A stretch of DNA of 64,000 bases from a virus (IMGVR_UViG_3300042458_000756:7704-71703); one strand, 5' to 3'. Shown: positions 14,064 to 56,063, counted from the stretch's first letter. Program-made: numbers and translations. Notes: generated from the letters alone by a model not told the origin.

Positions 14064-14064
14064 A

Positions 14065-15511: not shown

Positions 15512-15518
15512 TTTTCAC

Positions 15519-17626: not shown

Positions 17627-17627
17627 A

Positions 17628-29091: not shown

Positions 29092-29092
29092 T

Positions 29093-31908: not shown

Positions 31909-33843
31909 CTATGCTGAAATATCTACAAGCTCGCAATTACCGTCTGAGCTACAGGCAAGGGTGGCAGAGGGTGAAGTTCCATCTTCTGTCTCATAAAATG
32001 AAAGGTCTTCCCATCTAATGCTCTTTGGCATTTTCCCCAAAAGGCTTTCATATTCTTCTTTTGAAACCTCTTGATATGGCGCCTGCTTGTATGTGTGGTC
32101 TGAGTGAGGAAGGAAAGAAATTCCAGAAACCTCGTCAAAATTCTTATATACCCAAGCGCCAACTTCCATCCACTCTTCTTCTTTTACAGAAACAGTAATA
32201 GATGGCTTGTGCTCACACCATGCACGTTGATAAACTAGCCAAATGTCTAAGTGCTGAATAGCAGTTAAGTCGTTTCTAACAATTGAGCCTTCTGGTGCTT
32301 TTACTGGAAACGAAAAAACATATGTTTCGTTTGGCTTCATTACATCATCTTCTACTGGGATGCCGACTTCCTTTAAAAATGTAGAAATTGGATCCCCTTT
32401 TGAGCCACGAACAGTACGAATGTAATATGGTGAATGCCATGGGTGCATTCCTGAAGATACTCCAACTAATTGAGATACCGTTCCTGAAGGTTTTACGCAT
32501 GTAATAGCTGCTGACTCTGGGATTCCAATTTTTCCAGATTCTTCTCTGTTAATCTCTCTTGCTTTTTCACGCAATGTCATTAGAAATGACTCAAGCATAA
32601 CTATATCTTCTTTGCCAGACATAAATTTGTGACCAAACTGTCCAGTCAATGAAACTCCAAGAAGTCTTTCTTCTTCTGTGTTGTCTTTCCAAATTTTACG
32701 AAGATACTTAAAGTCTGTTAGGGTTGATTGCCAAGTCCCAAGAATTGTTGCAAGCTCAACTTTGCGCTGGATGTCTTTCTTTGTATCGTTTTCACGTAAT
32801 ACAACTTCTGAAAGGTTACAAAACTGATAAGGACGTAAAATAATTTCTGAACACGGGTTAGTTCCGTAGTGTATATCTGGATCTCTTCTTCCAAACTTTG
32901 ATGCTTGGGCTTGAGCTGCGGCCACATTGTATATGCCTCGCTCTCCTGATTTTGAGTCATATAAAGATTTCCATTCTGCAATAAATTGCTCCATCTGTGG
33001 CTTTCTTGAATATGCAACAGAATTGTTTGACAAAGCACGTTGTGGGCTTTGCTCCCACCAATTTCCTGATTTGGCTTGAGCCATTTCAATGTCATTAATA
33101 TTTGAAAGAGATATCATTGCTGATCTGCGAACCCCTCCAACTACAACAACCTCACCAATCTTGCACATAATGTCATGGCATTCAATTGGCTTTAAATTTC
33201 TTCCTGCAGCGTTCTTAAACTTTGCAATTGTAAAATCAAATAGATTAATAAGCGGCTGTGGTCCTGAAGACCTTCCACCCATGGTCTTTAATCTTGCGCC
33301 TGCGGGACGAACTTTAGAAACATCAATAGCTGGAATATGTCCAGTCCAAAGTAAAGCAAGCAATTCACGATAAGCTTTTGCCCAACCTTGTTTTGAATCT
33401 TCAACAACAATTACTGTGTCTGATTTTTCAAGTTTCTCTGGGACTGACGGGAGCTTGTTAATATATTTATATTCTACTGAGAATCCGACACCAGTTCCAC
33501 ACATAAGAACATACATTGTTTCATCAAATGAGCGGGGAGAATCAACTGGAAGAAAAGCACAGTTGTATCCAGCCACATTATCTCTTTCTAGAGCAGCACC
33601 TGAAGTCATTACTGATCTCATAGATGGCATTACATTTCGTTCAAAAACAAACTCTTTTAATTCCGCAACTAGCTTTTCATTTGGAATATAATTATAGTTT
33701 GTTTTTAAATGATTAGTCATAAAGTTAAAGTATCTATCTACTGTTTCTCCCCATGTTTCTCTACGACCTTCTGTTTCTACCCATTTTGCATATCTAGATA
33801 GAGCAATAAAGTTTTCATAAGGATTTTCAATAGTTTGTGACAT
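31909..33843 (-). CDS. nrdJ: Class II (B12-dependent) ribonucleotide reductase
   Basis: RRETWGETVDRY, YNCAF, GGVRRSAMI, GTNPCSEI, TCVKPSGT and C-terminal Cys pair; no small-subunit gene nearby. Confidence 0.93.
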   Translation of the reverse strand: MSQTIENPYENFIALSRYAKWVETEGRRETWGETVDRYFNFMTNHLKTNYNYIPNEKLVAELKEFVFERNVMPSMRSVMTSGAALERDNVAGYNCAFLPVDSPRSFDETMYVLMCGTGVGFSVEYKYINKLPSVPEKLEKSDTVIVVEDSKQGWAKAYRELLALLWTGHIPAIDVSKVRPAGARLKTMGGRSSGPQPLINLFDFTIAKFKNAAGRNLKPIECHDIMCKIGEVVVVGGVRRSAMISLSNINDIEMAQAKSGNWWEQSPQRALSNNSVAYSRKPQMEQFIAEWKSLYDSKSGERGIYNVAAAQAQASKFGRRDPDIHYGTNPCSEIILRPYQFCNLSEVVLRENDTKKDIQRKVELATILGTWQSTLTDFKYLRKIWKDNTEEERLLGVSLTGQFGHKFMSGKEDIVMLESFLMTLREKAREINREESGKIGIPESAAITCVKPSGTVSQLVGVSSGMHPWHSPYYIRTVRGSKGDPISTFLKEVGIPVEDDVMKPNETYVFSFPVKAPEGSIVRNDLTAIQHLDIWLVYQRAWCEHKPSITVSVKEEEWMEVGAWVYKNFDEVSGISFLPHSDHTYKQAPYQEVSKEEYESLLGKMPKSIRWEDLSFYETEDGTSPSATLACSSDGNCELVDISA

Positions 33844-36753: not shown

Positions 36754-37083
36754 AATAGACCTATTACGACATATATAGCAATTAAGCTGAAGATTTGTAA
36801 AGCTCTATAGACTGGGAAGTTCATCGTCTATGTCCTCATTTAGGTCAAAATCAAAGATTTCTCTTTCCCCCGCCCAATTTAGAAATTTAGACAATGCAAG
36901 TCCTGAAAGGATTGCTGTCGCAATTAGACTTATCAATGCCCATAACTTCTTCATATATATCCTAGTTGACTGAGATTATTAGTATCGATATCATGATTAC
37001 TAATAGAATACAAATTGATCTTACTTTTTTTCTTCTTGGCCATTCTTGAGGTACTTTTACATTATTCATTTTCTACTCCATTG

Positions 37084-37158
37084 TAGGGATATTGGGATTT
37101 GAACCCAAAGTCGTTTGTATATAAGACAAATGCTTTAACCAGATTAAGCTATATCCCC
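37084..37158 (-). tRNA. tRNA-Ile(UAU)
   Basis: Cloverleaf: GGGGATA/TATCCCT acceptor, GCTT/AAGC D-stem, TTTGT-CT TAT AT-ACAAA anticodon arm, TTGGG-TTCAAAT-CCCAA T-arm, discriminator A; CCA not encoded. Confidence 0.88.
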
Positions 37159-38940: not shown

Positions 38941-39414
38941 ACCTTTTCTCGTTATATAAATTATACCATTCTGCTGATTAGGATTGACTAATGGGGCTAA
39001 TTATTTTAAAATGTTAATATAATTTTTTGGAGTTGTATCACTTGATCTTAGGTCTTAGGTCTTACTATATATTTAATATTTATTATTTATTGATTTACTG
39101 ACCCCCCGACCCCCCTATTGGAAGTATACTATTTCTATTTTCGATGTCAAGCTTCCCACCAAAAAATATTTTTTTTGAGATTTTACAAAATGTTAATATA
39201 TCTTTATCTTGTACGATACACACTATAAAAAAATTCGGACATTTTGGATAGACCGCACATATTGAGCGTGAGTGTGTCCTATATCACAGGGTTTTTCTAA
39301 GATTTATTTGCGACACGCCCGAGAAACACCTCTAAATGTCAGTCCCCCCTGCTATGCTTAAGGTATAAAGAAAAACAAGCGGTAAAGAAATCCGCTAACG
39401 AAAGGAGCAATCAA

Positions 39415-42400
39415 ATGCTCACTCAAAAAACACTAGACGCAATCGTCTATGAATACCAACACGGGGGCGTGAAGTCCAACCACCCCGAATTGACTACCTA
39501 TGAACGCAAGGCGTTGCTAAAGCACCTCTTTAGCCTACCGACCTATTGCGCTTGTTGTGTGAGGTAAATCACACACGACACTAGCCCCAAATGGGTCTAA
39601 ATGTCAGTAGGTCGTGATAGTCTTACGACATACAAATAAATAAAGAATTAGAGCGTGAGCCTAGCAAATAATCCGAAAGGTGAGCCTAGCAAATAATCGC
39701 TCTCAACAAAATAACCAACTAACGAAAAGGATAGAAAATAAAATGACAATCACTTACTCACTATGGGACGGCGCACAATTCCTAGGTTTCTTTACAGCAA
39801 CTAGCGCAGACGAAATGAACAAGACAGTAACCGAACTACAAAAGGTTTCTAAAAATGTAGTAGCACACCTACGAAAGGTAGAACAGAACTAATGTCATAC
39901 GCATACTCTTACCAAACTAACTCAATAGATAAATACGCCTCTATCCAATCAGATGTCGCAGACGCATACGCTTACCTTGATGAAGTAGATGAGGAACAAC
40001 CTCCACTTGATGACTTTGATGACTCAGATGATGAACAACTAGCAAAACTATACTCACTAACTTGGGAAGGCTAATAAATGACTATCGAACTAAATGAATA
40101 CGGCTTAATGATTGACCTAGGCGACTTCCTCTATGTATCTCTAGGGTGGGCGTTCATTATCTTGACCGCTCTAGTTATTGTCGGCGTTAAGGTATACAAT
40201 AAGATAAAGAATAAGCGAGTAGCGGATACATTCGTAACCGATACAACTACTAACGATTTATGGAGTAACTAATGACTACTAATCGCATACTAACTACACT
40301 AGTCCAATTAGGTATCGGTATCCCCGCCCTACTTATGGCTCGCCTTGTATGGCGTGAGATCGTGTCCGATTATAGGGAGTGGGCTAAATCACACTAACGC
40401 TACGGCGTGTCGGCTTGACAAAGTCAAGCTGGCCCGCAAAGGCACGGGGTCGGGCGTGTCGTTACGGGTACCTACTAGAACCCCTGGAATTTTGTGAGAT
40501 TTATCACATAAAAAGATTTCTTGAAATACGGCGTGTCGTGTTGATAATGTCGGTGTGCTCGTGTATAATACCATTATAACCACAACGAAAGGTCGATAAA
40601 ATGACACTAGATGAATACAAGGCTTATGTAGAAGCCACACGCAAGGAAAGCCTACTAAAGGCTATCGCAACAATGTCAGAGGCTAATGATAAGATGTCCT
40701 CACTATTCAATACTAAGGAGGCAGACTAAATGGGTTATGTAGAAATCTTTCGCATAGATAACGAGGGTGCGGGTTGGGTAGATTTATCCGAGGCAACACC
40801 AGATGAACTATTCAACATTGAATTAGGATTACTAAATGAAGGGGCGTTTGAATAATGGCTAGTAATTGGACAACATTCGCAACTGTAAGAGATTACCCTA
40901 GCGGGCTAATGAATGAATGCGTATGCGGGCAAGTAGTCCTTGCGCCAAAAACACGACACGAGAATTGCGAGAATAAATAAATGAAAAGATACACATTCGG
41001 CGTTTGGCTAGACATAGACGCAGAGGACGAAAATCAGGCGGTGTCTTTATTTGATAGCGTTGTGAAAAACACTTTTGTTTCAGACTCTTATTGTTTTGAA
41101 TGGAAAGAGGTCGCAGATGAAATCGCAATTTGAAAAAGATTTAGAAATAAAAGAAAGTTTTATTGATTTACTAAATGATGTTTATCCAACTGTAAAAATT
41201 GGTTATTCAACTTTTACTCCCGCCGAGATTTTGGAATGTTGCGACCCTGTTGCTTTTTCTATCGGACTAATTGAACACGAGGACTATCTAGCAGAAATGG
41301 AAAACGAATGAGCGATTTATTTGGATTTGAAAAAGCAATTCAGCTCGATCATCTTACCGATAAACAAATAAACGAATTAGAAGAAATTCTAAAAGATTAT
41401 CAATAGATAGCGGCGTGTCGCCTTGACAAAAGGTGATCCGCCCGCAAAAGCACGGGGTCGGGCGTGTCGTTATGAAAGAGTTATAAAACCCCTGGAATTT
41501 TACGGCGTGTCGATTTGACAGACAAAACGGACATATCTATGTGATTAGTATCACACCGCTTGAGCGTCTCAATATTTGGAATTACTGGCTAGTAATGTGA
41601 AAATGTCAGCCCTATCCGCTATAATTGCGGTATAACCAAACGAAAGGTGACAACTTATGTCAGCAAATGTCTATTCCGTAGCAAACCTACTTGTAGGAAA
41701 AATGTATTACTCTCGCTCAGTATCGGGCGAAATTATTGACGCAGAAAAAACCGATAAGGTCTGGTATGCGGATTGCGATAGTTATCGAATTCAGGTAAGA
41801 GCGCAAAACACTTTCAGAGATACTTATCGCTATGTAGCCGTAAAGGTAGGTGAATAAATGTTAGATACAAAATACATTGACGAAACCGAATTCTATTTCA
41901 TAAAAGATGAAATAAAATTTCATTGTGACGAAAGCCAATTTGTTTATGTGTGTAAAGCACACGGCGAGCAAATGGGTTGCTACTATTGCGAATTTAACTA
42001 TGATGAGAATTGCGAGTGTGAAGGATAATGATAAACTCAGTAATGCGTATAGATTGCTCAGATTGTAATTCAACTGGACTAATCTTTTTTGGAGATAACA
42101 ATAATTTTGATGTCGAAACTTGCGATTGCGATTTCGGCAAAGAGCAAGACTCATTTTTTAACTAACGAAAGGGAAACTAATGTATAAAATAACTCTAGCC
42201 TATGACGGAAATGCGCCACATTGGCAAGGCGATTACTATGATGAAATGGAAGCGTGGTCAGCGTTTTTCAAATTCACCGATTGGGGATTTGCTGATGAAT
42301 TCTCAACTGTAAATATTTACACTCCCGAATTGAAATGCTATACAAAAAACTTTTATCGTAGCGGAATGGTGGTAGCAAAATGATGACACGCAAAGACTAT

Positions 42401-42571
42401 GTAGCAACCGCAGAAATTCTAAAGTATGCTAGCGATAAAACTCACCCCGCTTTATTTTCTAAAATCGTAAATGATTTCGCTGAAATGTTTGCGAAAGATA
42501 ATGAGCGATTTGATGTAAAACGATTTCACGAAGCGAGCAATTACAATGTTCCTAAATTCACTTCAAGATAA
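39415..42571 (+). other. Cluster of very small early-type genes (e.g. 39415..39567, 39743..39892, 39892..40074, 40078..40272, 40272..40397, 40601..40729, 41657..41857, 42180..42383, 42380..42571)
   Basis: Co-oriented 40-70 aa ORFs, many after AACGAAAGG RBSs or TAATG coupling; no recognisable domains. Confidence 0.7.
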
Positions 42572-42820
42572 AGTAAAACGCATTCAGGAATTGCGCCGCA
42601 GTAATGCGGCGCAACCTGTTCGCAATAAAAAAAAATACACACGCAAAATAAAACATAAAAATAAATTCGATCAATAGCCCACAGCTCGGCCCGCAAAGGT
42701 ACGGGGTCGGGCGTGTCGTTAAGACTGTGATCTAAAACACCCTGGAAAATTGGGCGTGGCGTGGAAAATGTCAGTCTAATCTGCTATAATTCCAATATCT
42801 ACCAACGAAAGAGGTCCATT

Positions 42821-43030
42821 ATGGAACTATTTACAGTATCTTGCTTGAACTATGAAATTTGTGGCGCTCAAGAAACTTTTGACAATGATTCAGAATATGA
42901 AATTTATGGCGATGATTATATCTGCGCTGAATGCTATGCGTCTGAGGAAATGGAATTCTTTGAAACTATTGGCTGGGCTGATTCTGATGCTCTTGCTTCC
43001 GCTGGATTTGGAATGGATGAGGATTACTAA
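42821..43030 (+). CDS. Small acidic Cys-containing protein
   Basis: ACGAAAGAGG RBS; C....IC...CAEC; ends DSDALASAGFGMDEDY. Confidence 0.65.
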   Translation: MELFTVSCLNYEICGAQETFDNDSEYEIYGDDYICAECYASEEMEFFETIGWADSDALASAGFGMDEDY

Positions 43031-43061
43031 TATGTCAGACCCAACCGCTATAATTACCCCT

Positions 43062-43781
43062 ATGAAACTGAAACGCTCTAACGATAGAAAGGTGGCTAAC
43101 CTTGTCACAAAAAATGGAAAGCAAGCGGCAATTGCTAACACTTTCGGATTACCTGCTGGAAAAGCTTACTCGTGCCCTGGTGCCACTAGTATTTGTGAAA
43201 GCGTTTGCTACGCAGGAAAACTCGAAAAGTTATTCCCTGGAGTAAAAACTAATCTGCTACACAATTGGGAATTGCTACGCAATGCCGATATGGATACAAT
43301 GCTTATTCTATTAGATGAGATGATTGTAGAATTTATCGCCGATTGTGAAAAGAAAGACGCTCCTAAGTTATTCCGTATCCACTGGGACGGGGACTTCTTC
43401 AATGATACTTACGCATATGCCTGGAAAGTAATCATTACTAACCACCCCGATGTTCAATTCTGGGTTTACACTCGTGTAAAGTCTGCAGCGCTTATTCTTA
43501 AGGATGTCTCTAATTTATCTCTTTACTATTCCACCGATGATGAGAATAAAGAAATAGCATTCGATTTGAAAACTAATTCTAAGGTCCGCCTTGCTTATCT
43601 AGGGAAGACATTCGCTTCAACCGAAGACACGATGAAAGAATTGACTGGCAAGCCTGGCGCTAAGTGCCCTGAGAATATGAAAAGTATTCCGCTTATCTCT
43701 AGCAATGGGTCCGCCTGCGTTTCTTGTGGCCTATGTGTTTACGGTAAAGCAGATATTAGATTTTCTGCGAGTAAAAAATAA
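43062..43781 (+). CDS. Gp88-like (radical-SAM-related) phage protein
   Basis: FGLPAG..SCPGATSICESVCYA, FRIHWDGDFF, FWVYTR, C-terminal CVSCGLC; leaderless start 7 nt after TATAAT. Confidence 0.75.
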   Translation: MKLKRSNDRKVANLVTKNGKQAAIANTFGLPAGKAYSCPGATSICESVCYAGKLEKLFPGVKTNLLHNWELLRNADMDTMLILLDEMIVEFIADCEKKDAPKLFRIHWDGDFFNDTYAYAWKVIITNHPDVQFWVYTRVKSAALILKDVSNLSLYYSTDDENKEIAFDLKTNSKVRLAYLGKTFASTEDTMKELTGKPGAKCPENMKSIPLISSNGSACVSCGLCVYGKADIRFSASKK

Positions 43782-44113
43782 TGTATGACTTTATCGGATC
43801 CATTCTTGGAATTGGATTAATTGCATTCTTGTGCTCACCAATTGTGCTAGCCGTGTACATGTGGAATGGCGCAAAATTTGATGATGATAATGACGGAATA
43901 GAAGATTTGCCTAATCGTTGGTAACGGCGTGTCGGCTTGACAAAGTCAAGCTGGCCCGCAATGTTGTGGGGGGTTATCCACAGGCTTACGAGAGTTATCC
44001 ACAACCCCTAGAATTGTGAGTATTATCACAAAAGCTGCGACACGCCCATAATGGATTAGGTAATGTCAGTGGCAAATGCTATAATACTCTTATCCAACAA
44101 CGAAAGGTAACAA

Positions 44114-44320
44114 ATGACACCAGTAGAACACTCACTCAAATTCGTAACCGAGTTTGACGAAACACATCCTATCGCAAAACAATTCTTACAATTAGATGAA
44201 CAATCACAAATTGCTATGCTAGAGTCAATGCTAAAAGATTTATTGGTATCTGCTATCCAACCAGTAATTGACCACATCAACGAAAACGGCTCATACGCAA
44301 TTCTAAAGGTGGCTAACTAA
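44114..44320 (+). CDS. Hypothetical protein
   Basis: AACGAAAGG RBS with promoter upstream. Confidence 0.7.
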   Translation: MTPVEHSLKFVTEFDETHPIAKQFLQLDEQSQIAMLESMLKDLLVSAIQPVIDHINENGSYAILKVAN

Positions 44321-44583
44321 TGGGATACACAACAGCGCTAGATTTATCAGACTTAGGATTAGAGCAAGGTATCTCTATTCACTTACAAGGTAATCACTAC
44401 CCACCCGTTCCACTTTCTATGGTGAAGCCGTGTATCGATGCTATCGATGCTTGGTGGGATGAGGATTCAGATAGGTTGATCGAAATGCCTGAAGGCGTAT
44501 CTTATCGAGGAGATAAGTTTGCCCCCGCCCACGCAATAATTGACCAACACCACTTACACGCTTGGCTACAAGAAAGTGATTAG
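44320..44583 (+). CDS. Hypothetical phage protein
   Basis: HLQGNHYPPVP...HHLHAW; TAATG coupling. Confidence 0.7.
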   Translation: MGYTTALDLSDLGLEQGISIHLQGNHYPPVPLSMVKPCIDAIDAWWDEDSDRLIEMPEGVSYRGDKFAPAHAIIDQHHLHAWLQESD

Positions 44584-44677
44584 CATCACACAATAACTTT
44601 CTCAAATAATGAGATAGGGCTAGACTAATGTCAGACCCCAATGCTACAATACTACCTAACAAAGAAAAGAGGCAAAA

Positions 44678-44857
44678 ATGACAATAGAAGGAAAACTCTA
44701 TCAGGTCGGCGATTTATTCACCAGCCTAAAGTCAAAAAAGACAGGTGTTATCAAGGAGATACACCCACAGGCATCTGGCTCGGTGCGTGTGCTACTGGAA
44801 CTACCTAGCAGGGAAACTCGCTGGACTTCAGTATCAGCCAAGACACTACTTGGCTAA
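44678..44857 (+). CDS. Small SH3/KOW-like protein
   Basis: Not in track; MTIEGKLYQVGDLF...TGVIKEI...VRVLL; own promoter and RBS. Confidence 0.6.
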   Translation: MTIEGKLYQVGDLFTSLKSKKTGVIKEIHPQASGSVRVLLELPSRETRWTSVSAKTLLG

Positions 44858-45024
44858 TAAGACGGAGGCATACACCATAATCGGGTGCTAAGCCACGAAA
44901 CAGGGACAGTTTAGGAGAGTATCTAGTCCAATGTCGTAAGTAAGAACTCTCCCCCCTTCGGGGGAAATGTCAGACCCCCCTGCTATACTATCCATAACAA
45001 CAACCAACGAAAGGTAATAAATAA

Positions 45025-45441
45025 ATGAGCAGACAAATCACAGTAAAGGTCGCAACGACCAAAGTAATCAAGGCACTAGAAACTCGTCTAGCAACACTAG
45101 AAAAAGACTATGCCACACAAGGCGCAAATGAAGCAAAGTATCAAAAGTCAGTAGAAGCGTGGCGCAAGGAAATTGGTAAGTGGGCTATTGCTAACTTCTC
45201 AAAGGCTGAGAACCTTCGCACAAACTATCGCTCTTGGAACAACACTCTCAATGTTGATTTTGACATCATCACAAAAGAGGGAACTTTCCCTACTGAACCT
45301 GAAAAGGATTTTGAGGTTATCCATCAGCACAGTTATCGTGAGATGAAAGAGGACATCACAAATGCTCTCACAATTCTCAAAATGACAGATGAGGAAACAG
45401 TAAATGCTTCCACAATGAAGCAGATTGCTAAGTATCTCTAA
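45025..45441 (+). CDS. Hypothetical protein
   Basis: 138 aa, promoter and AACGAAAGG RBS. Confidence 0.75.
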   Translation: MSRQITVKVATTKVIKALETRLATLEKDYATQGANEAKYQKSVEAWRKEIGKWAIANFSKAENLRTNYRSWNNTLNVDFDIITKEGTFPTEPEKDFEVIHQHSYREMKEDITNALTILKMTDEETVNASTMKQIAKYL

Positions 45442-45548
45442 ATAGGTTTTGGGGGGTTAGCACACAAAGTCTAGACACCTAAACCCAAACGACCTGAGTA
45501 AGTCGCCAAACTGCTCTCCTTCGGGAAACTACTAACAAAGGTAATACA

Positions 45549-45809
45549 ATGGCAAATCGTTTCAGAGTAGAAATCTACGATGCTAACAAAGCAAATGACA
45601 TCACGATTTATTCAGATCAAGGTGTTGATAAAGAATACTTAACTGAATTAGTATTCAGCAACATCAGAAACTTTAGCGGAAAGATTAACGCTTATGTTTT
45701 TGATAATGTAAAAAAGAAAAAAACAACTGCGATGTTTCTTGATGAGAGCACAGTTGAGTTTAGTAAAAATCTAATTAGCAATGCTAAAAAGGTAGAGGTG
45801 GGGATTTAA
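45549..45809 (+). CDS. Hypothetical protein
   Basis: 86 aa, AAAGGT RBS. Confidence 0.7.
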   Translation: MANRFRVEIYDANKANDITIYSDQGVDKEYLTELVFSNIRNFSGKINAYVFDNVKKKKTTAMFLDESTVEFSKNLISNAKKVEVGI

Positions 45810-45986
45810 TCTCCAGCTCGGCCCCCGCTTTTGGGGGGTTATCCACAGGTTTACGAGTGCTTGTGGATAACCCTGAAAGTTTGTGATAATGATCACACCG
45901 CACAATTAGGACAAATGACTATCTAATCTAGACAATGTCAGTGGGGTCTGTTATACTTACAACTAATCAAACGAAAGGAAATAAAA

Positions 45987-46991
45987 ATGGCTCATAATCT
46001 AGAAATGGAAAATGGCGAAGTTGCTTTTGCGCTTCGTGGTGCTCCTGCTTGGCACAATCTCGCTAACCGAATCTTTACAAAAGATGAGGAAGTTACAACC
46101 AGTCTAATGCTTGAAGAAGCAAAGTTGGCTAATTGGAATGTTCGCTTATCTCCAATCACTGAGCACATTCCAGAATCTTGGAATGATGTATCTACCGCAT
46201 CTCTTGTCATTCGTGATAACCCATTCAATGGCGCAACTGATGTTCTCGCAACTGTTGGCAAGCGTTACAAGCCAGTTCAAAATGAAGAACTGTTTGCGTT
46301 TGCTGATGCTATTCACGACGCTAATGCTGATTGCCGTTGGGAATCTGCTGGCTCATTAAAGAAGGGCAAAGTGGTATTTGGAACTGTGGACATTCCACGC
46401 ACAATGGTTCTTGACCCACAAGGCGCTAATGATGAAACAAAACTCTATTTAATTGTTTGGACATCTCACGATGGTTCTGTTGCTGTTCAAGCAGCCGTTA
46501 CACCTGTTCGTGTTGTTTGCCAAAACACTTTGAATCTTGCTATGCGTAATGCTAAGCAATCATTCAAGATTCGTCATACACAATCTGTTGAAGGACGAAT
46601 TCAAGTTGCTCGTGAAACTCTTGGGCTTGCTCTTGGTTACTTTGATGAGTTTGAAGTTGAGGCTAAGGCTCTCTACTCTCAGGCAATTACTGATGCTGAG
46701 TTCTCTAAGTTGATTCAGACAATTTATCCTAAGCCTGAAAAGGATTCTAAGGGTGCGCTAAAGAAGTGGGAAAATAAGGTTGTTCTACTTGATGACCTTT
46801 ATCATAACTCACCAACTAACGCTAACATCAAGGGAACTAAGTGGGGTGCGTTTAACGCTCTTACTGAACGCCTTGATTATTATCGTTCAGGTCGTGGTAA
46901 CGGCGAAACTCTTATGGCTGGAGCATCGGGCTTTGACCCAGTTCTAACTGCTGAAAAAAATAAAATCAAGAAATTGATTTCTGCTTTCTAA
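45987..46991 (+). CDS. DUF932 family phage/plasmid protein
   Basis: MAHNLE, PAWHNL, YKPVQNEE, ESAGSL..GK.VF, SHDGS, TPVRVVCQNTL, GTKWGAFNALTE. Confidence 0.9.
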   Translation: MAHNLEMENGEVAFALRGAPAWHNLANRIFTKDEEVTTSLMLEEAKLANWNVRLSPITEHIPESWNDVSTASLVIRDNPFNGATDVLATVGKRYKPVQNEELFAFADAIHDANADCRWESAGSLKKGKVVFGTVDIPRTMVLDPQGANDETKLYLIVWTSHDGSVAVQAAVTPVRVVCQNTLNLAMRNAKQSFKIRHTQSVEGRIQVARETLGLALGYFDEFEVEAKALYSQAITDAEFSKLIQTIYPKPEKDSKGALKKWENKVVLLDDLYHNSPTNANIKGTKWGAFNALTERLDYYRSGRGNGETLMAGASGFDPVLTAEKNKIKKLISAF

Positions 46992-47039
46992 ATAAATAAA
47001 ATCCTGAGCAAGATTTAAAACTGCTCACAATTTTTTCTT

Positions 47040-47113
47040 GGTCTGTTAGCTCAGTTGGTTAGAGCGCTACCCTGTCACGGTAGAGGTCGACGGTTCAAGT
47101 CCGTTACAGATCG
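47040..47113 (+). tRNA. tRNA-Asp(GUC)
   Basis: GGTCTGT/ACAGATC acceptor, GCTC/GAGC D-stem, CTACC-CT GTC AC-GGTAG, GACGG-TTCAAGT-CCGTT, discriminator G. Confidence 0.92.
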
Positions 47114-47240
47114 CAAAGCGCCCGCAATATTAAGGGGAAAAAAAGTGTGTTACGTCTCACATAAAAAAAACCCTGAAATCTATTGCGGATGTCAGTGGCG
47201 TCGTGTACAATACTCCTATACAACAACGAAAGAGGTAAAT

Positions 47241-47669
47241 ATGTCATATGAACGGACGAAGGGCTATACAGGAAATGTCCTGGATGGCAAGAAGCTTGCT
47301 AAGATTGCAAATGATATTTATCGTGCACAATATAGCAATGACTTTAGCGAATGCACGGTTGATAACTTATTACTAATTGAATTAGAAGAGAAGAATGTAT
47401 TTGGGGATCCTAAGTATGCGGTCCTATGCTCTGAAGGTGTTGGCTGGGAACAAGATGAATATGGTTGCCTAGAAATACCTACAAACATTGGGCAGATGGG
47501 TCTATGGAATGGAAGAGTCTTTATCTCAGTAGAGACTGTTAAGTCTTGTCAGACTATCTTTAAAGAAGATGTATCAAATTACATTAGGACCTTTGGCTCC
47601 CGCCTTGATTCTAACTGCTCCCTATGGCAGTCCAAAATGTCAGTGGAACCTGTTACAATACTCGGATGA
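47241..47669 (+). CDS. Hypothetical protein
   Basis: Start at MSYERT after ACGAAAGAGG; the track's upstream extension overlaps the tRNA. Confidence 0.7.
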   Translation: MSYERTKGYTGNVLDGKKLAKIANDIYRAQYSNDFSECTVDNLLLIELEEKNVFGDPKYAVLCSEGVGWEQDEYGCLEIPTNIGQMGLWNGRVFISVETVKSCQTIFKEDVSNYIRTFGSRLDSNCSLWQSKMSVEPVTILG

Positions 47670-48319
47670 GCACAGACCTAGTATCAACCAAGTATACATT
47701 TGCCTGCGACCCAGATGAATGTGATTGTTTAATCGAACTAACATCATCTGACGGATTTGGATTCCCGTCGGGTGTGATGCAAATCACTTGCCCGTGTGGC
47801 CGTAAGCCAGTCTTATTGTCAGCGGTCACTGCTACAATTGCTCCAACAAACCAAACGAAAGAGGAAACAATGGAACCAACTACAACACCAATCCCTGAGT
47901 CATATAACTCTAATCTATTGGTAACCTACAAAGTAATCCGTGGCTATTCAGATGCAGAATATGCAACTGATAAAGTTACATCTATTGAGTGGGACTTACA
48001 CAATGGACGCCAAGCACAAAAGCAAGCAAATCTTTATTTGTCTAAGATTGACACAGTTAAAGATATTATCACTGAAGCATATGCCGATTCAGATGACCAA
48101 GAAACACTTCGTTCAATTGCTGAAGCGCTTGACATTCCATTGACACGAACAGTTGAGTGGTCTGCATCTGTTGAGGTTAGCGGAACCATTGAATTAGATT
48201 TGCTTTCTGATTATGACACTGACATTGAGTCAGAGATTACAGATGCTCTTTATGTTGAAGCACAGAACGGCAACATTGAAATTGTTGACCAAGAAGTATG
48301 TAATGTGCGTGAGAACTAA
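47666..48319 (+). CDS. Hypothetical protein with N-terminal Cys cluster; internal start at 47870 likely
   Basis: CDPDECDC...CPCG; leaderless start; internal promoter and RBS. Confidence 0.65.
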   Translation: MSTDLVSTKYTFACDPDECDCLIELTSSDGFGFPSGVMQITCPCGRKPVLLSAVTATIAPTNQTKEETMEPTTTPIPESYNSNLLVTYKVIRGYSDAEYATDKVTSIEWDLHNGRQAQKQANLYLSKIDTVKDIITEAYADSDDQETLRSIAEALDIPLTRTVEWSASVEVSGTIELDLLSDYDTDIESEITDALYVEAQNGNIEIVDQEVCNVREN

Positions 48320-49229
48320 TGTACTTTGAGTTGACCGCTCCCGATAGGCTATCTCTTGAGATGGCTTATTGGGATGCACAAATCACAGGGCTCGACCCTG
48401 AATTTATGCCGCCATTGACATTCAACATTGGAACTGGTAGTATTGAGAAAGTTAGTCGCATTCGTGATAAGTATAATTTAAAAGAATCGTACTGGTCAGA
48501 AAAAGAATCGACAGGATACTAGGAGATAAAATGTCAGATTATAAAGATGGATTTCAAGACGGGTACAAGTTTGCTCGTGAAGAACTAATGGAAAAGTTGT
48601 CAGAGATTGACATCGCTGACATTGACTCTTGGATCCTTGACCGTCTTTCAGAAATGATTGAGGGTGGCAACCTGTGATGGCTGAATGGCTTAAGTGTGAT
48701 CAGTGTGCAGCTCAGGCAATGTGGGAAGCAAAGAAAGACACGATGTCTCTTTATTTTTGTGGACATCATAAGAATGAACAAGGCGAGCCCCTTGTGGACT
48801 GGGCCGAAGAAATGGTACAATTACTCAACTACGAGCAACAACTAACAAAGGCGGAATAAAATGGGCGACAGAGCAAACTTTGGTTTCAGAGATTCCAAGG
48901 AAAATATTGTATTTCTATATGGACACTGGGCAGGGCACCGTATGCTAGAGAATTTAGCGGACGCCGTGCAGATTGCACATCCACGTTGGAATGACGAGGC
49001 ATATGCAACACGTATTGCTATCAGTCAAATGATTGGTGATGAATGGCCTAGCGAAACAGGCTGGGGCATTAGCGTTAATGAATTGGCCGACAATGAGCAC
49101 AAGGTCCCTATTATTGATTGGAAGAATAAAACATTTACATTAATGGAAGAGGACCTGCAGACTGTAGTATTTAGCACAAGCCTTGAGGCATTCGTCGCTA
49201 AGTATTGTAGTCAACTAAGTATGGTATAA
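48319..49229 (+). other. Four small genes: 48319..48522, 48531..48677, 48674..48859 (CDQC..FCGHH Zn finger), 48861..49229 (MGDRANF..LYGHWAG)
   Basis: Coupled ORFs with RBSs. Confidence 0.7.
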
Positions 49230-49235
49230 TTAATC

Positions 49236-49397
49236 TAGGACCTTGGTCCTGGTTTTAATACAGAAATGAAATGGTGCGTCTAACTAGTCTACGGGCCAGG
49301 CGCTAAGTAAAGCGGTTTATTTCTTTCGTTGGAAATCAGCAGCCATATTCATTACCCCCTAGTCAGCTTCAACTCTGAGCCTAGGGGGAATTTTTTT
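49236..49397 (+). ncRNA. Candidate structured RNA (about 160 nt)
   Basis: TGGTATAAT at 49222-49230, several stems, terminator CCCCCTAG/CTAGGGGG plus T-run, no ORF of note. Confidence 0.4.
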
Positions 49398-49569
49398 GCC
49401 CGCAAGGGCGAGGGTAACATATCTCTTTTACGAGGTCAATAGCAAAACTCCTGAAAATTTGTGATCTTGACCACAAAGCTGAATAATGTGGGGTGTATCA
49501 CACCCAAAATCTATTCCAAATGTCAGTGGTCCATTGTATAATTGGAACATATCAACGAAAGGATATAAA

Positions 49570-50361
49570 ATGCCAAATTGGTGTTATAACACATTAACTA
49601 TCCAAGGACCTAAGTCTGAGGTAGATATGATTAAAGATAGATTGAATGCTCCATTTACATTAGCAATGGAGAATCACGGTATGGGTGATATCTCTTCTAT
49701 GGGTTTCCCCACCAAAATTAAACAGGTTGAATATAATAATCCTGTGTTTGCTTTTCATAACATCCACTCATATAAAGATGACGGCATTACTGATGAAGAA
49801 TATGCTTGCCAACCTAATCGTGGAGATATAGATATTCAGAATGACCCTGATTGGTTCCGCAAATCTATTGAGTTTGCTAAGACTCAAAAGGATTGGTATT
49901 CGTGGAACAATTCTAATTGGGGAACCAAGTGGGATGTTGCAGTATCAGATGATGAGAAGTATTCTAATACAGAACTACTTGAATATAAATCAGAAGGTGA
50001 TGACAACTGGCTTGTCTATAAATATGAAACTGCTTGGTCACCTGCTGTAACTATCTTAACTAAACTAAGTAATCTTGTTCCTAACTGCCTGCTTACATTA
50101 GAGTTTGAGGAAGAGACAGGCTGGGGTGGGGAATATGAGATTGTTCGTGGTGAAGTAAAAGAACTATTGGCATATGAGAACCGTTGCTATGCTTGCCAGT
50201 CTTTTGATTGTATTGACTATTGCGAGAATGACTGCGGTGAATTCTGCTCAGAATGCAATGAGGGCTCTTGGCAGGATGAGGTGGCTATGAAAGAATGTCA
50301 GACCCATATGGTATTATTACCTTTGAAAACCTACACACAGGAAGAGGCACTAAATGTCTAG
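49570..50361 (+). CDS. DUF1281/YubB ferredoxin-like family protein
   Basis: MPNWCYN.L.I.G, WYSWNNSNWGTKWD, YETAWSP, EE.G..G. Confidence 0.85.
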   Translation: MPNWCYNTLTIQGPKSEVDMIKDRLNAPFTLAMENHGMGDISSMGFPTKIKQVEYNNPVFAFHNIHSYKDDGITDEEYACQPNRGDIDIQNDPDWFRKSIEFAKTQKDWYSWNNSNWGTKWDVAVSDDEKYSNTELLEYKSEGDDNWLVYKYETAWSPAVTILTKLSNLVPNCLLTLEFEEETGWGGEYEIVRGEVKELLAYENRCYACQSFDCIDYCENDCGEFCSECNEGSWQDEVAMKECQTHMVLLPLKTYTQEEALNV

Positions 50362-52129
50362 TTTCTTAGAAAATGAAAATGAAATGTTGATTGACGCAAT
50401 CTTCTCTGAAATTGGAGAACAACTCGTTGAAGATTGGATGAACTCTAATTTAGATGAAGGGCAACTATATGCCGATTGGTGTGTTGCCGATATGTCTAAC
50501 AGCAATTATCTAAAAGGCAGGTTCAATCAGTTTCACAATTTAAGTCCAACAGATAATTACTACCTACAATGGGATGAGAACGCAGAATGACATACTATAA
50601 CTTCGTAATTAAATTACACGGTGCCGTTGGTGCTAATAGCGAAGAAGAAGCAATTGAAAAAATCAATGGACATCTTGATGACCTTGGTCAAGTAGAAAGT
50701 ATTATTAAGTATGACTTAGGTTGGCCTGAGACATCTTGGGAATTGGAGGAACAGTAATGCTAGGTTATACTGAATCCGATCTAAATAGAATGATTAATGC
50801 TATACACGATTCAAAGCTTTTCTATCTTAGGACCCCGTCCGATTTAATGGACAAGGAGCCTTTGAGGAAAGACTTGGAAGACGCTGTTAGTTTCTTGCAA
50901 GGTTTGTGGGCGGAGGGTTACTTTGACCACACAGACTAAATCATCATACTTCTTGGAGTATATGAAGTTACATCTAATTAGTCTTAACCAGGACTTAGAG
51001 GGTGATTATAATGTTCAATCTAAGATTAATATCCAGGGACAAATTATGGCAACCGAGCATTTATTGTCAGTGGCAACTGATATAATGAATAACTCTAACG
51101 AAAGGTATGAATAATGAATATAACATCTAGAGAAGTTACTTATCGTTCCGCCGTTGAACAAATATTTTTTGAGGACGGGACAGAATTAGTAATCACAGTC
51201 GGTGCTCCTGCCGAAGGCGGAGGAGATATCGATATCGAATATAACTGGGTAGACGGGAAGCCTGATTGGGCAGACTACTTAGATGAATCAACACTAGTGA
51301 ATTATGAGGTAATCTAATGAATCAAGAAGACATTGGTCTACCACCACATTTACAGCGTATGGTCAATGCTGGAGTATCGGGCCTTGACATTATGCACGGA
51401 GAACTAAAGAATCTAATGCTCATTGCTGAGCAAGACTTGGCAGACGCATTAGAACAAGAAACATTATCTGAAGAGGCAATGGATTCTATGGTCCGAACAG
51501 AATGTGAAGGGCGCCTAGATACTCTGGTAGAACTATATAATCTAACATACCAACTATCATTTGCTATAGGAGAAAGGCAGGGGCAAAAATGACTCATTAT
51601 GAGCCAAGCTTGGAAATCCTTGAAATGGAATACTCTTGCTCACCTGGAGGAGTAGATACATTTGAAGTGTATGATAAAACAGATATACCTTTGTCTGTTC
51701 CAATATATGAGACTGAATCTTTGACGGATGCTGTGCTCTACTGTTATAATTTAGGAAAAGACTTTACTGTCAAAACATTAGCGGAATGGAATGAAAGGGA
51801 GTTAGCATATGAAGCCTGAAGATAAAGATAAACTCAACGAATGTTTAGAGATTCTTGATTCCACCGACCTTGGATTATCCCTGGTTTGGCTATGGACTTG
51901 GTCTACCATTAACAACATCTTTGAGGATGAGACCTACAAGCAGAACTGCACCATAGACGAGATGTGGGACCACCTCTGTGAGGCCGTGGAGGCGGGCCAG
52001 GGCTTCTCTCTGGAGTACGGGGCGGAACAGCACAATGATGATGTACTTGAATGGATGATGAATCGTGAATACATTGTAGACACAATGTTTGAAGAAGAAG
52101 AGGAAGAAGACGAAGATGAAGATGAGTGA
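50354..52129 (+). other. Run of small acidic hypothetical genes (50354..50590, 50757..50939, 50923..51114, 51114..51317, 51317..51592, 51589..51819, 51809..52129)
   Basis: Tightly coupled co-oriented ORFs. Confidence 0.7.
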
Positions 52130-52370
52130 TCAGTACATCAATGATCAATTAAATACAGCACAAAAGCTTTTGTGGGGTGGATCCGAAACAGAAAATATTG
52201 AGGCCCATAACATCATTGCTAAATTAATTAAAGATCGTATTGAGCAAGTAAATCTTTCGTAGGGGCCAAATTCGGCGGTTACGATACAACTTAATAAACT
52301 CCTGAAAGCTATTTACAATTTCGTGAATAGTTGATATAATAAATAAAACATCTCTTGAAAGGGGATTCAA

Positions 52371-52520
52371 ATGACAACAAAGCGTGAATATCTAAAGCAG
52401 CAAGGCATTACAGTCGGTGTACGTGGGCGCTTCTCAGGAGCAGCCAAGGTAGCTCTAGCGGAAGCTGTAGCCAAGGGCGTTACATTTACTGCAGAGACTC
52501 CAGCCAAGAAGGCTAAGTAA
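52371..52520 (+). CDS. Lsr2 DNA-binding-domain-like small protein
   Basis: Not in track; MTTKREYLKQQGITVGVRGRFSGAAKVALAEAVAKG...; TTTACA-17-TATAAT promoter and GAAAGGGG RBS. Confidence 0.7.
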   Translation: MTTKREYLKQQGITVGVRGRFSGAAKVALAEAVAKGVTFTAETPAKKAK

Positions 52521-52605
52521 TCCAGGGTGGAGGTCGGGGCTTCGTTGGTCCTTGACCTCCTCTCTTATTTTTGGTACAATTGACAGTTAGGCGGAAGGCG
52601 GACAT

Positions 52606-52983
52606 ATGAGTAAGACACAAGAAATCAAAGTAGCAGAATCATTAGTTAATCTAATGGATGACCATTGGTTTAATCCAACTATCTTTGGTCGATATCTGGC
52701 GGAACAGCCAATCTATACAATTGACCGAGTTATGGAAATGATTGTTTCAGTAATTGCTGAGCAAGCAAAGATGTATGATGTATATTCAAATCAAGGTACA
52801 TATACAGAAGGTTTAAACTTAGCCAATGAACTAAATGAATGTATCAAAGCATACCAGCAAGATAACAACTTAGTTAATCTTAAGTTGCCGTCCCGTTCTT
52901 ACAAAGTAAAACGGGAAGAATCAAAAGAAAGAACATATCAATTTGGATGGCGGGAAGAGAAAGATCCATTCAGTCAACCATAA
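52606..52983 (+). CDS. Hypothetical protein
   Basis: 125-aa ORF, last of the plus-strand block. Confidence 0.7.
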   Translation: MSKTQEIKVAESLVNLMDDHWFNPTIFGRYLAEQPIYTIDRVMEMIVSVIAEQAKMYDVYSNQGTYTEGLNLANELNECIKAYQQDNNLVNLKLPSRSYKVKREESKERTYQFGWREEKDPFSQP

Positions 52984-53041
52984 GGCATATACAATGAATA
53001 GATGAATGCCTGGTTAGATAGATAAACATATCTAGCCCAAA

Positions 53042-53062
53042 TTATCCACAGGGTTATCCACA
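53042..53062 (+). promoter_or_regulatory. Pair of DnaA boxes (others at 43974, 43995, 45839, 45862)
   Basis: Exact TTATCCACA / TGTGGATAA matches. Confidence 0.7.
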
Positions 53063-53863
53063 TCCTGTGGATTTTTTGTGTGTGGGCATGAGGGCAACAT
53101 TTTGTATTTACGACAAGCTATTTTAAATCCCTGAAATTGTGGGCAAATTTTTCTATTTACGAAGGCTTGACAAAATCCCCTGAAAATGCTACACAATATG
53201 TCTAAATGATTAATTATACATATAGAATGTCGACAAATGTGTAGAGAATATGGCAGAATATGGCAAAATTCCTTGCATAATCTATTGACAAATATGGATC
53301 AATATGCTGCTATATATGGCTATTGACATTACGTTAAGTATATGGGATGCTCAATTACATATGTATGTTTAACTATATATAACTATAGTATATGATATGC
53401 TATCTATAGTATAAATTCTCCACTATGCTCCACTTTACTCCACTATATAAGCCTTCTAAGGGCTATATGAGGGGAGATAAATGGGAGGGGGATATAGGAG
53501 TTAGGAGCTAATTTATTGCAATTTGCTCTTGTTCTTAGATGGTCTTCTAGACCAATCTGGAGCTTTATGTGCAGTAGTTCCTCTAGATGTAGACTCTATT
53601 AGGGCTTTATTCTTATCTAATGCTTCTTGGGCATATTGAAGCTGTTGATCCCAATTGAACTTCCGTTTTTTTGCCATATCTATATTATACTATATTAGTA
53701 TAATTCTAGTCAACCATTATCTTACTGAGCATTCCAGACACACAAATGGGTCATCGTCAGCCTTATAAAACAGGATCTTGCATTCGCTGCATGCTACCTT
53801 ATATGGCTCTTTTTTAACAAACTTATTATATGATGATTCGAACTTATCCATTGATCTATTGTA

Positions 53864-54891: not shown

Positions 54892-55236
54892 CTATTTCAT
54901 TGCTTTCTTGACTTTTTTTAGCGCTCTATGAAACTTTACGTATCTAATTGGATTCTTAAAAAATTTAAGTGGAAGCTTTACTTTTTTCTTTGTCATGCTA
55001 TCTCCTTGTAAGTGTATTTCATTTACTGGTTCTTTAGACCAGTGTATGTAAGATCTAATATAAACTGCTCCGTATGCTATTGCTGCAAGAATAAATCCGT
55101 ACTGCTCAGTAGTAATTGCATACACAGTCCATAGACATTCATTTACTAATAATACAAGCCAGGCCCATATGACTTTACGTCCTACAAAAAATGTTCCTGT
55201 TACGCCAATTGCTGCCAATACATATGACCACCACAT
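54892..55236 (-). CDS. Small membrane protein, PnuC-like half
   Basis: Three hydrophobic segments with W/G pattern; basic tail may be a fused second gene. Confidence 0.5.
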   Translation of the reverse strand: MWWSYVLAAIGVTGTFFVGRKVIWAWLVLLVNECLWTVYAITTEQYGFILAAIAYGAVYIRSYIHWSKEPVNEIHLQGDSMTKKKVKLPLKFFKNPIRYVKFHRALKKVKKAMK

Positions 55237-55832: not shown

Positions 55833-56063
55833 TTAAGCTTCAGGTGAAGGAGTCGGACCTTCGTTGTCAGGTTCGGAACCTGGAGTACTGCCGTTATACG
55901 AACCTGAAATATTCTTAGGAATAATTCGCTTAATTTCGTAGCAACAGATTGGGCACTCTCCGATGTGCAAACTATTACCTGAATCTAAGATAACCATTTC
56001 GGTTAACCTTCCTTCTACATTCTTATTACAAGGAACGCAGAAAGCACTCAACATTACTGTCAA
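55833..56063 (-). CDS. Small Zn-ribbon protein whose tail overlaps the tRNA
   Basis: FCVPC...GECPIC. Confidence 0.6.
   Translation of the reverse strand: MTVMLSAFCVPCNKNVEGRLTEMVILDSGNSLHIGECPICCYEIKRIIPKNISGSYNGSTPGSEPDNEGPTPSPEA
55838..55908 (-). tRNA. tRNA-Arg(CCG)-like, possibly degenerate
   Basis: TTCAGGT/ACCTGAA acceptor, GTAT/GTAC D-stem, CCAGG-TT CCG AA-CCTGA (one mismatch), GAAGG-TCCGACT-CCTTC (atypical T-loop). Confidence 0.65.

Follow-up and report, generated by a model that had tools for sequence, protein, structure and literature searches.

The stretch of DNA considered here comprises 64,000 nucleotides of the viral contig IMGVR_UViG_3300042458_000756 (hereafter the window, bases 7704-71703 of the 71,703-base contig, with all coordinates in window numbering), and carries a repeated, gapped DNA motif of the form GGG-N13-TTACG-N16/17-CCTGRAA between the small early genes of a phage. 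The contig is part of a tailed phage whose minus strand encodes capsid, protease, portal, tail-fibre and ribonucleotide-reductase genes. The plus strand between 39.4 and 53.0 kb carries about 40 small open reading frames (ORFs), almost all without a known family, and it is in this early block that the motif is found. A preliminary description of the sequence had reported ten copies, all in one orientation, and a regular-expression scan of the window with the pattern GGG-N13-TTA[C/T/A]G-N16/17-CCT[G/A][G/A]AA recovers ten copies at the same starts on the plus strand and none on the minus strand. The count remains ten to zero over the whole contig, with no copy outside the early block, and is likewise ten to zero for the two-box core without the GGG. 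The strict core TTACG-N16/17-CCTGRAA occurs 7 times in the contig, against an expectation of 0.05 (standard deviation 0.22, maximum 1) from 100 dinucleotide-preserving shuffles.

The observation of an oriented motif is thus confirmed, and the finer points of the description also stand. The gap between GGG and TTACG is 13 nucleotides in all ten copies, the gap between TTACG and CCT is 16 nucleotides in five copies and 17 in the other five, and the variants TTATG, TTAAG and CCTAGAA each occur once (in the copies starting at 41454, 42703 and 43970, respectively). The sequence GCCCGCAA precedes the GGG by 14-16 nucleotides in six of the ten copies. The spacers host GGCGTGTCG in copies 1-3, DnaA boxes of the form TTATCCACA in copies 4 and 5, and a TGTG..CACA palindrome in copy 6. 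Every copy is intergenic, and the last two, 49 nucleotides apart, lie at the border with convergent minus-strand genes. The copies and the elements beside them are as follows.

40446-40489, plus strand: copy 1, GGG-N13-TTACG-N16-CCTGGAA, with GCCCGCAA at 40432 and GGCGTGTCG inside the N13 spacer
41454-41497, plus strand: copy 2, the TTATG variant, with GCCCGCAA at 41440 and GGCGTGTCG inside the N13 spacer
42703-42747, plus strand: copy 3, the TTAAG variant, with a 17-nucleotide spacer and GCCCGCAA at 42689
43970-44013, plus strand: copy 4, the CCTAGAA variant, with GCCCGCAA at 43954 and two direct DnaA boxes, at 43974 and 43995, one per spacer
45835-45878, plus strand: copy 5, with inverted DnaA boxes in its two spacers and a hairpin, CCCCC-GCTTTT-GGGGG, whose 3' arm is the GGG of the motif
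47040-47114, plus strand: tRNA-Asp gene, ending 20 nucleotides ahead of copy 6
47134-47178, plus strand: copy 6, with a TGTG..CACA palindrome across TTACG and GCCCGCAA at 47120
49412-49456, plus strand: copy 7, with GCCCGCAA at 49398, directly past a hairpin and T-run (about 49352-49397)
52263-52307, plus strand: copy 8, followed 4 nucleotides on by a sigma-70-like promoter, TTTACA-N17-TATAAT (52312-52340)
53044-53078, plus strand: intrinsic terminator closing the last early operon, made of inverted DnaA boxes and TTTTTT
53092-53136, plus strand: copy 9, which opens the terminal tandem pair and stands 20 nucleotides past the intrinsic terminator of the last operon (53044-53072)
53141-53185, plus strand: copy 10, second of the tandem pair, with TTGACA in its spacer and no plus-strand gene behind it
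39337-51086, plus strand: about 18 promoter-like TGTCRG-N10-TAnnnT sites, taken as the ordinary promoters of this block, 16 with TGTCAG and 2 with TGTCGG
53186-53512, no strand: A+T-rich (68%) repeats that follow the tandem pair

Both the motif and its spacing are kept in relatives, at related loci and in complete genomes. Related loci were drawn from IMG/VR as the best 80 (1.33 Mb in all) of 312 stretches encoding a relative of the DUF932 protein of the early block in a tblastn search; these best 80 matches show 92-98% protein identity and lie on contigs of up to 120 kb. Across the 80 loci, the full motif is present 409 times on the gene strand versus 0 times on the opposite strand, and the two-box core 443 times versus 2. 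Five complete relatives (105-120 kb, rated 97-100% complete) hold 7, 8, 7, 7 and 8 copies of the strict core, on one strand and within a span of ~10-13 kb, with 0 copies on the other strand and 0-1 matches to a reversed control pattern. When an 18-base version of the motif was scanned over all of IMG/VR, matches were obtained in 87 stretches. The eight least like this genome were inspected, and six of them (32-38% G+C) present the context of the terminal class of the motif in this family; the other two (L222 and L247, 59-60% G+C, without features of the family) look like chance matches, in about the expected number. Of the 79 that remain, 78 share 16-100% of their length with this phage by BLAST. 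The motif thus appears to be specific to this phage family. The early block, at least in part, is present in 24 listed lake or freshwater sequencing runs, 18 of DNA and 6 of RNA.

A position-by-position profile of 306 unique copies, found by a search that did not demand the GGG, resolves the motif into four boxes over about 58 bp: GCCCGCAA, GGG, TTACG(A) and (AAAA.C)CCTGRAA-TTTT, with the full consensus GCCCGCAA-N6-GGG-N13-TTACG(A)-N16/17-(AAAA.C)CCTGRAA-TTTT. Relative to the T of TTACG, the upstream part reads g-CCC-g-CAA at -30 to -23 and T-R at -19/-18, while the GGG at -16 to -14 is represented by G in 293, 302 and 295 of the 306 copies. An A directly follows TTACG in 198 copies. On the other side of the spacer, an A-run at -6 to -3 before CCT (A in 206-249 of 306) is followed by a C at -1 (251 of 306), and TTTT stands after CCTGRAA. 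The spacer between TTACG and CCTGRAA measures 16 nucleotides in 145 copies and 17 in 161. In sequence the spacers are free, except for classes with recognisable sites, namely two DnaA boxes (the second in either orientation), GGCGTGTCG, GTCAATA, TTGACA (terminal copies) and, where the motif follows tRNA-Asp, a TGTG..CACA palindrome with TTACG at its centre. Beyond the TTTT, more than half of the copies have a TGTGA-N6-TCACA palindrome that begins at +10, 3-4 nucleotides past CCTGRAA.

Some of these accessory sites also occur apart from the motif. The window has five perfect TGTGA-N6-TCACA palindromes of the CRP/GlxR type (at 39558, 40493, 41540, 44015 and 45882), three of which begin 1-3 nucleotides past motif copies 1, 4 and 5. 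There are ten GGCGTGTCG boxes, 8 on the plus and 2 on the minus strand, at 40404-44046 and at 39319, all in the variable left half of the early block; this box contains GACAC, which we take to be the core of WhiA sites.

The conserved boxes and free spacers might be thought to reflect an RNA structure. However, among the 306 unique copies, pairing between the N13 and N16/17 spacers is at the level of shuffles at all seven registers, and the positions flanking the CCC and GGG boxes show no covariation. A hairpin in RNA or DNA, whether between the spacers or between CCC and GGG, was accordingly rejected. A structured RNA element can also be set aside, as the paired fraction equals that of shuffles. 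No Rfam family overlaps a motif copy at E <= 1, the Rfam matches in the window being tRNA-Asp and two sub-threshold chance matches. Nor is the motif itself an intrinsic terminator, given that it has no internal hairpin covariation, that the hairpin sits upstream of it and that 235 of 392 copies have no T-run. Integron attC-type sites were rejected as well, there being no inverted-repeat covariation and no integrase among Pfam matches. The lack of base-pair covariation in the spacers therefore marks the motif as a site at the level of DNA, presumably read by a protein, and not as an RNA fold. The preliminary description had proposed geometric recognition by a protein complex, and spacers of fixed length and free sequence, without covariation, are consistent with this proposal.

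The geometry of the two downstream boxes is suggestive of a promoter, and an alternative promoter is the main rival to the interpretation developed below. According to this reading, which we consider doubtful but the most serious of the alternatives, TTACG would act as a -35-like and CCTGRAA as a -10-like box for the host RNA polymerase, redirected by a phage or host specificity factor; a second entry into each module would be gated by DnaA, a CRP-type regulator and others, and the terminal tandem pair would fire into the AT-rich repeats, perhaps priming replication. Spacers of 16 and 17 nucleotides are used equally, the motif, at about 58 bp, is of a length similar to the footprint of a polymerase, and an AT-rich RAATTTT follows CCTG. 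In addition, regulator sites are found in the spacers, with the CRP-like palindrome just past CCTGRAA, and a tandem pair followed by repeats of 68% A+T resembles phage origins with tandem promoters, as in T7. The likeness to promoters of the sigma-70 family thus extends to the distance of 16-17 nucleotides between two boxes, to an extension on the upstream side and to sites for regulators within the spacer and beside it. Unlike such promoters, the motif has no TAnnnT or TATAAT box, the profile being devoid of a TAnnnT at any constant position within the 60 nucleotides downstream, and TTACG is a poor -35 box. The consensuses for sigma-54, sigma-32, extracytoplasmic-function (ECF)-type sigma factors (GGAAT/GTT and GTAAC), T7-type promoters, lambda boxB and IncP nic, as we take them to be, fail to fit both boxes and their spacing.

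What precedes the motif is, in most instances, a hairpin. A stem of at least 5 bp (with at least 3 G-C pairs) ends 14-50 nucleotides before TTACG in 226 of 321 unique copies (70%), versus 44 of 321 (14%) in shuffled sequence. A T-run lies upstream of 157 of 392 copies, and in 118 of these the last T falls at -39 to -27. Copies 7 and 9 of the window directly adjoin complete intrinsic terminators of canonical form. The frequency of hairpins upstream of promoters with and without the motif (89% and 65%) was also compared, and is not discriminating.

What follows the motif is commonly a promoter of a different type. In 246 of 333 unique copies, a TGTCRG-N10-TAnnnT site is present 10-110 nucleotides downstream. 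These sites, which presumably correspond to the RecA-NDp promoters of the PafBC type, are followed by a common AACGAAAGG ribosome-binding leader, and many have TGn before the -10 box. PafBC works through the non-palindromic RecA-NDp motif (PMC6789036, PMC8223512). All TGTCRG-N10-TAnnnT sites in the window are on the plus strand and within the small-gene block; of the 18, those at 40179 and 40674 fall within ORFs.

This proximity raises the possibility that the motif is an upstream operator only, that is, a regulator site for the next promoter with no role in ending the upstream transcript. Copies 6 and 8 end 4 nucleotides before the -35 position of the next promoter, the TTGACA inside the spacer of the terminal class is placed so that a bound protein would cover a promoter, and in the Streptomyces phage Jay2Jay, discussed below, a palindrome occupies the same slot as the motif. 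These points and the 246 downstream promoters notwithstanding, we regard the operator reading as unlikely. Only 405 of 1167 TGTCRG promoters have a motif within 250 nucleotides upstream, and TGTCRG promoters therefore do not need the motif. Moreover, the distance from motif to promoter varies from 10 to about 110 nucleotides, the first promoters of the block have no motif, and the strict asymmetry of the motif and its register with hairpin and T-run are left unexplained.

The most telling result is the order of the elements. The window has nine early modules, with a motif behind each, two behind the last one and none before the first. The order of TGTCRG promoters (P) and motifs (M) was read in 19 related loci with full 10-kb flanks: the series opens with P in 19 of 19 loci and closes with M in 17 of 19, the closing element being MM or MMM in 10. 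Beyond these ten endings, MM is found only in one locus (L031), where a single P follows (MMP). This order is a grammar of start and stop, and not a second class of starts. An alternative promoter would hardly be expected to be missing before the first module, to have no plus-strand gene behind its last copies, or to be absent from all middle and late regions. The preliminary description had also considered promoters for a virion-carried polymerase. That suggestion is opposed by the same order of elements, and no RNA polymerase or sigma gene was found among the scanned ORFs of the contig and of the rest of a complete relative.

We tentatively favour, at somewhat less than even likelihood, the interpretation that the motif is a polar, protein-bound terminator or insulator at the ends of modules, similar in principle to the stoperators of mycobacteriophages. 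It is favoured because of the order from promoter to motif, the register of hairpin and T-run, the strict polarity, the failure to find a -10 box or an alternative polymerase, the slot of the Jay2Jay palindrome and the stoperator precedent. We infer that a sequence-specific protein or complex, more likely encoded by the phage than by the host, reads the four boxes, which would mark the 3' end of every early-gene module, and that its binding stops transcription. RNA polymerase arriving from the upstream module would meet the bound site just as the terminator-like hairpin is transcribed, and would be halted; the bound factor would also make hairpins without a U-run effective. In this manner, each module would be insulated and driven only by its own promoter and the host inputs of that promoter, and the doubled copy at the end would shield the convergent genes and the repeat region behind it. 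As a by-product, the conserved cassette of hairpin, motif and promoter would provide a point of homologous exchange for module swaps.

Several considerations weigh against a polar boundary. No binding protein was found with Pfam, PHROGs or a protein atlas. The 16/17-nucleotide spacing of the boxes is the geometry of sigma-70-family promoters, and sites for host regulators (DnaA boxes and CRP-like palindromes) in the spacers and flank are typical of promoters. As copies 7 and 9 adjoin complete intrinsic terminators, an extra stop looks redundant there, and 58 bp is long for a simple roadblock protein. The RNA runs exist only as contigs, and the mechanism is a prediction.

Polar arrest at intergenic sites has a precedent in phages of actinobacteria. 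In cluster A mycobacteriophages, elongation is halted by repressors bound to asymmetric sites between genes, and the effect depends on the orientation of the site (PMC9283540). Stoperators of the L5 gp71 type and the present motif are alike in being asymmetric, present in many copies, situated in short intergenic spaces, oriented with transcription and found in an actinophage, although the block to elongation is a property of the stoperators (PMC9283540). In other respects the two differ. Stoperators are contiguous 13-mers that are bound by a monomeric immunity repressor and distributed over the whole genome of a temperate phage, whereas the four boxes of the motif and the gaps between them extend over 45-58 bp, and all copies fall within a single block of 13 kb. 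Furthermore, stoperator phages have a repressor, while the scanned ORFs of this phage yielded no repressor or integrase match, and binding and blocking at the motif are predicted.

A second precedent is provided by the promoter-early stem-loop (PeSL) cassettes of T4-type phages, in which a terminator and a promoter are situated between small early genes and are kept while the flanking genes swap (PMC4122927). The present cassettes are similar with respect to the hairpin (226 of 321), the downstream promoter (246 of 333) and homology limited to the cassette. The PeSL, however, conserves a stem-loop and an ordinary sigma-70 early promoter, whereas here an extra oriented, gapped element, itself devoid of a promoter consensus, stands between hairpin and promoter.

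The Streptomyces phage Jay2Jay offers a third comparison. Its early terminal-repeat block (L084, 1-14000) has thirteen operator-like GTCCGG-N3-CGGAC palindromes, most of them between a hairpin of the GGGCCC-TTCG-GGGCCC type and a TTGTA..TAGACT promoter; we know of no description of this repeated site. The likeness consists of a repeated site in the same slot, from GC-rich terminator hairpin to early promoter, in a phage whose cluster has portals at best 57% identical to the one in this contig. The Jay2Jay site is nevertheless a short palindrome without direction and without sequence likeness to the motif, and the TTACG motif is absent from that 14-kb stretch.

The cassettes bear on a further suggestion of the preliminary description, namely that the motif marks recombination sites that make the early region a cassette array. 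When the window was compared with the 80 loci, a similarity segment covered motif copies 1-4 in 40, 71, 59 and 77 loci, respectively, and the homology ended within the intergenic region on both sides in 14, 34, 21 and 19 loci. In these instances, therefore, only the regulatory cassette is common and the neighbouring genes differ. At copy 6, the similarity ends just behind the promoter in 45 of 65 loci, on one side, and copies 5 and 8-10 have few or no cassette-limited matches. Contigs of RNA libraries, derived from variant phages, show joints at 40443>41501, 42661>43927, 44085>45968 and 45855>49444, the last of which connects the TTACG of copy 5 with copy 7. Similarity also breaks off repeatedly at numerous gene borders that have no motif (for instance at 51100, 51300 and 51550), and the motif is therefore not a unique breakpoint. 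Thus, the expectation that breakpoints in gene content coincide with the motif holds at the cassettes of copies 1-4 and 6, but many breakpoints lie elsewhere as well. A table of reassortment between two spacer classes was too crude to use.

Such data could be accounted for if the motif were a signal for exchange of cassettes between co-infecting relatives, through either a site-specific enzyme or a PeSL-like patch of homology. Cassette-limited homology at copies 1-4 and the RNA-library joints at or inside motif copies are in keeping with this, and PeSLs act in this way in T4-type phages (PMC4122927). Even so, we consider it improbable that recombination is what the motif is for. No integrase or recombinase was found among the Pfam matches of the scanned ORFs, and the RecA, RuvC and Cas4-like nuclease of a complete relative suit homologous exchange, which needs no fixed boxes with free spacers. 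Similarity ends at motif-free gene borders also count against it, as do the copies with few or no cassette-limited matches. A site-specific cassette array is accordingly not upheld by the breakpoints or by the genes found. We see the cassettes as behaving like PeSL recombination islands, which would follow from their conservation and would not be what the motif is for.

The RNA libraries have little to say on transcription, as their pieces are contigs, in which neither an end nor a gap can be equated with the end of a transcript. None of the 32 pieces displayed, out of 1235, passes a motif copy by at least 31 nucleotides on both sides, an observation that is not used as evidence. In two studies RNA-library contigs stop at 45822, 13 nucleotides before copy 5, which is at most a weak hint.

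Behind the tandem pair, the A+T-rich region at 53186-53512 contains three CTCCACTWT repeats at 10-nucleotide phase, two copies of CTATTGACA and a recurring AATATGG. Three DnaA boxes lie just upstream, at 53042, 53054 and, inverted, at 53064-53078. The region may represent an origin of replication or one end of the genome. In many IMG/VR contigs of the phage family, the sequence stops in the corresponding region.

If the region is an origin, the motif copies might stop or steer replication forks that leave the repeats at 53.2-53.5 kb, as polar barriers or accessory sites of the origin. In the Tus-Ter system, and at the TTF-I Sal boxes behind ribosomal RNA genes, repeated, oriented protein sites stop polymerases that approach from one side. 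The single orientation of the motif throughout, the DnaA boxes inside or beside several copies, and the position of the tandem pair against three 10-nucleotide-phased repeats and three DnaA boxes would all fit such a role. The known systems belong to other organisms, however, and have no sequence likeness to the motif, and no Tus or RTP homologue was seen among the Pfam matches, in which no search was aimed at these proteins. In addition, the status of the repeat region as an origin is itself presumptive, and the one-to-one link of the motif with transcription units is better explained by transcription. We give a barrier or origin-accessory function only a slim chance.

The preliminary description had further proposed stepwise signals for DNA entry or strand nicking. 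Such a role has been suggested for the repeat regions of T5. The motif is on one strand only, in the block presumed to be expressed first and with DnaA boxes nearby, and at least 13 of the 87 IMG/VR stretches with the motif are situated within ~1 kb of a contig end, in the terminal repeat region. The terminal repeat of T5, with its injection-stop region, is similar in that repeats and DnaA boxes are found at the far end of the first-expressed genes, but neither sequence likeness nor a common geometry with the motif was found. Contig ends in AT-rich repeats are expected from assembly alone, and ten sites over 13 kb at operon borders fit a role in transcription better. Entry or nick signals are thus very improbable.

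A bolder version of the polar boundary combines several of these elements. A phage complex on the four boxes might form a nucleoprotein 'gate', with the spacers as slots for DnaA, a CRP-type regulator and other factors, and might stop RNA polymerase, and possibly forks that leave the repeat region, from one side only. This is a speculative and rather improbable proposal.

Compared with portals of Streptomyces phages of about 121-134 kb, that of the contig reaches an identity of no more than 57.7%, the 334-amino-acid DUF932 protein of the small-gene block has its relatives mainly in phages of actinobacteria, and Pfam GP88 is found in the contig. A WhiB-type gene is present in a complete relative (G003; L082:19701-20000), just past the end of the part that matches this contig. 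We take the host to be an actinobacterium because of this evidence from portal, DUF932, GP88 and WhiB. The WhiB-family gene of the relative, which supports such a host, is also a candidate modifier of host sigma A and could supply the specificity factor of an alternative promoter. An AhpC-like gene points elsewhere, with its best cellular matches in Burkholderiales (65-67%); it was discarded for host identification as ambiguous, its top three matches being short contigs of metagenome-assembled genomes.

If the motif were a site of a host regulon, it might be enriched in host genomes. The core pattern is not enriched in 401 Actinomycetota genomes (0-5 matches each, like the reversed control), although the host may lie outside this sample and a small regulon would not show. 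A core match occurs at least once in 132 of the 401 genomes, with a maximum of 5; G127 and G325 are unpublished members of this set, and the lack of enrichment holds independently of them. The same result counts against an alternative promoter.

Neither an alternative polymerase nor a repressor emerged from the search for the reader of the motif. The remaining 47 kb of the relative G003 encode tape measure, tail proteins, DnaB, primase, DNA polymerase III alpha, RecA, a Cas4-like nuclease and RuvC. Pfam matches in the scanned ORFs of the contig and in these 47 kb include no sigma factor or RNA polymerase, which weighs against an alternative promoter, though very divergent factors would escape such a search. 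Five complete relatives have no match to Sigma70_r2 (PF04542); a search with PF00940, for T7-type polymerases, was uninformative because its control was silent. Early ORFs gave no helix-turn-helix or repressor match with Pfam or PHROGs, and the only DNA-binding family among 38-63 early or neighbouring ORFs examined with these two collections was a 49-amino-acid Lsr2-like piece. This ORF (52371-52520, plus strand) matches only the start of the Lsr2-like family of DNA-bridging proteins (PHROG 6269, E = 2e-7), has an RGR motif and may be a minimal binder of AT-rich DNA. A set of twelve early proteins recurs in every one of the 19 relatives with full flanks; two of these core proteins, of 231 and 138 amino acids, match only unnamed viral clusters in the protein atlas.

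In the literature on Stanwilliamsviridae and freshwater actinophages, no paper on the motif was found, and a letter search for the boxes returned unrelated papers. The phages described in PMC10202952 are of 39 kb and do not belong to this family.

The window has further features. There are three tRNA genes, Asp-GTC (47040-47114, plus strand), Ile-TAT (37083-37158, minus strand) and Arg-CCG (55837-55908, minus strand), the first of which belongs to the early block, with the DUF932 gene immediately on one side and copy 6 on the other. On the minus strand at 12751-18326 lie eight tandem paralogous genes of 205-260 amino acids, six of which match 2OG-Fe(II) oxygenase and one DUF6065. These paralogues adjoin tail-fibre genes with collagen-repeat, Peptidase_S74 and Mtd_N matches (11565-12734, 19842-21992 and 26878-29115), and may therefore be hydroxylases that modify the fibre. 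Host-like metabolic genes are also present on the minus strand, at 54892-55236, 57526-58574, 61629-61931 and 31909-33843; the set comprises a PnuC-like transporter fragment, a member of the CMD family, an AhpC/TSA peroxiredoxin, a thioredoxin and a B12-type ribonucleotide reductase.

The phage family is common in lake metagenomes, and its early region is unusually legible, with ordinary promoters of a type known from actinobacteria, host-regulator boxes, hairpins and an oriented element in a fixed order. If the motif is a protein-dependent polar terminator or insulator, the stoperator principle of temperate mycobacteriophages would also hold in an uncultured, lytic-looking lineage, in which the site is modular and far larger, and the motif would represent a compact part for insulating transcription units in actinobacteria. 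A 'gate', if true, would be a counterpart in bacterial viruses of Tus-Ter or of the terminator and fork-barrier sites of ribosomal DNA, and would make the early region a set of independently switchable modules. If the motif is a promoter instead, it would point to a new way of redirecting actinobacterial RNA polymerase. In both cases, the motif lies at the junctions where early genes are exchanged among these phages.

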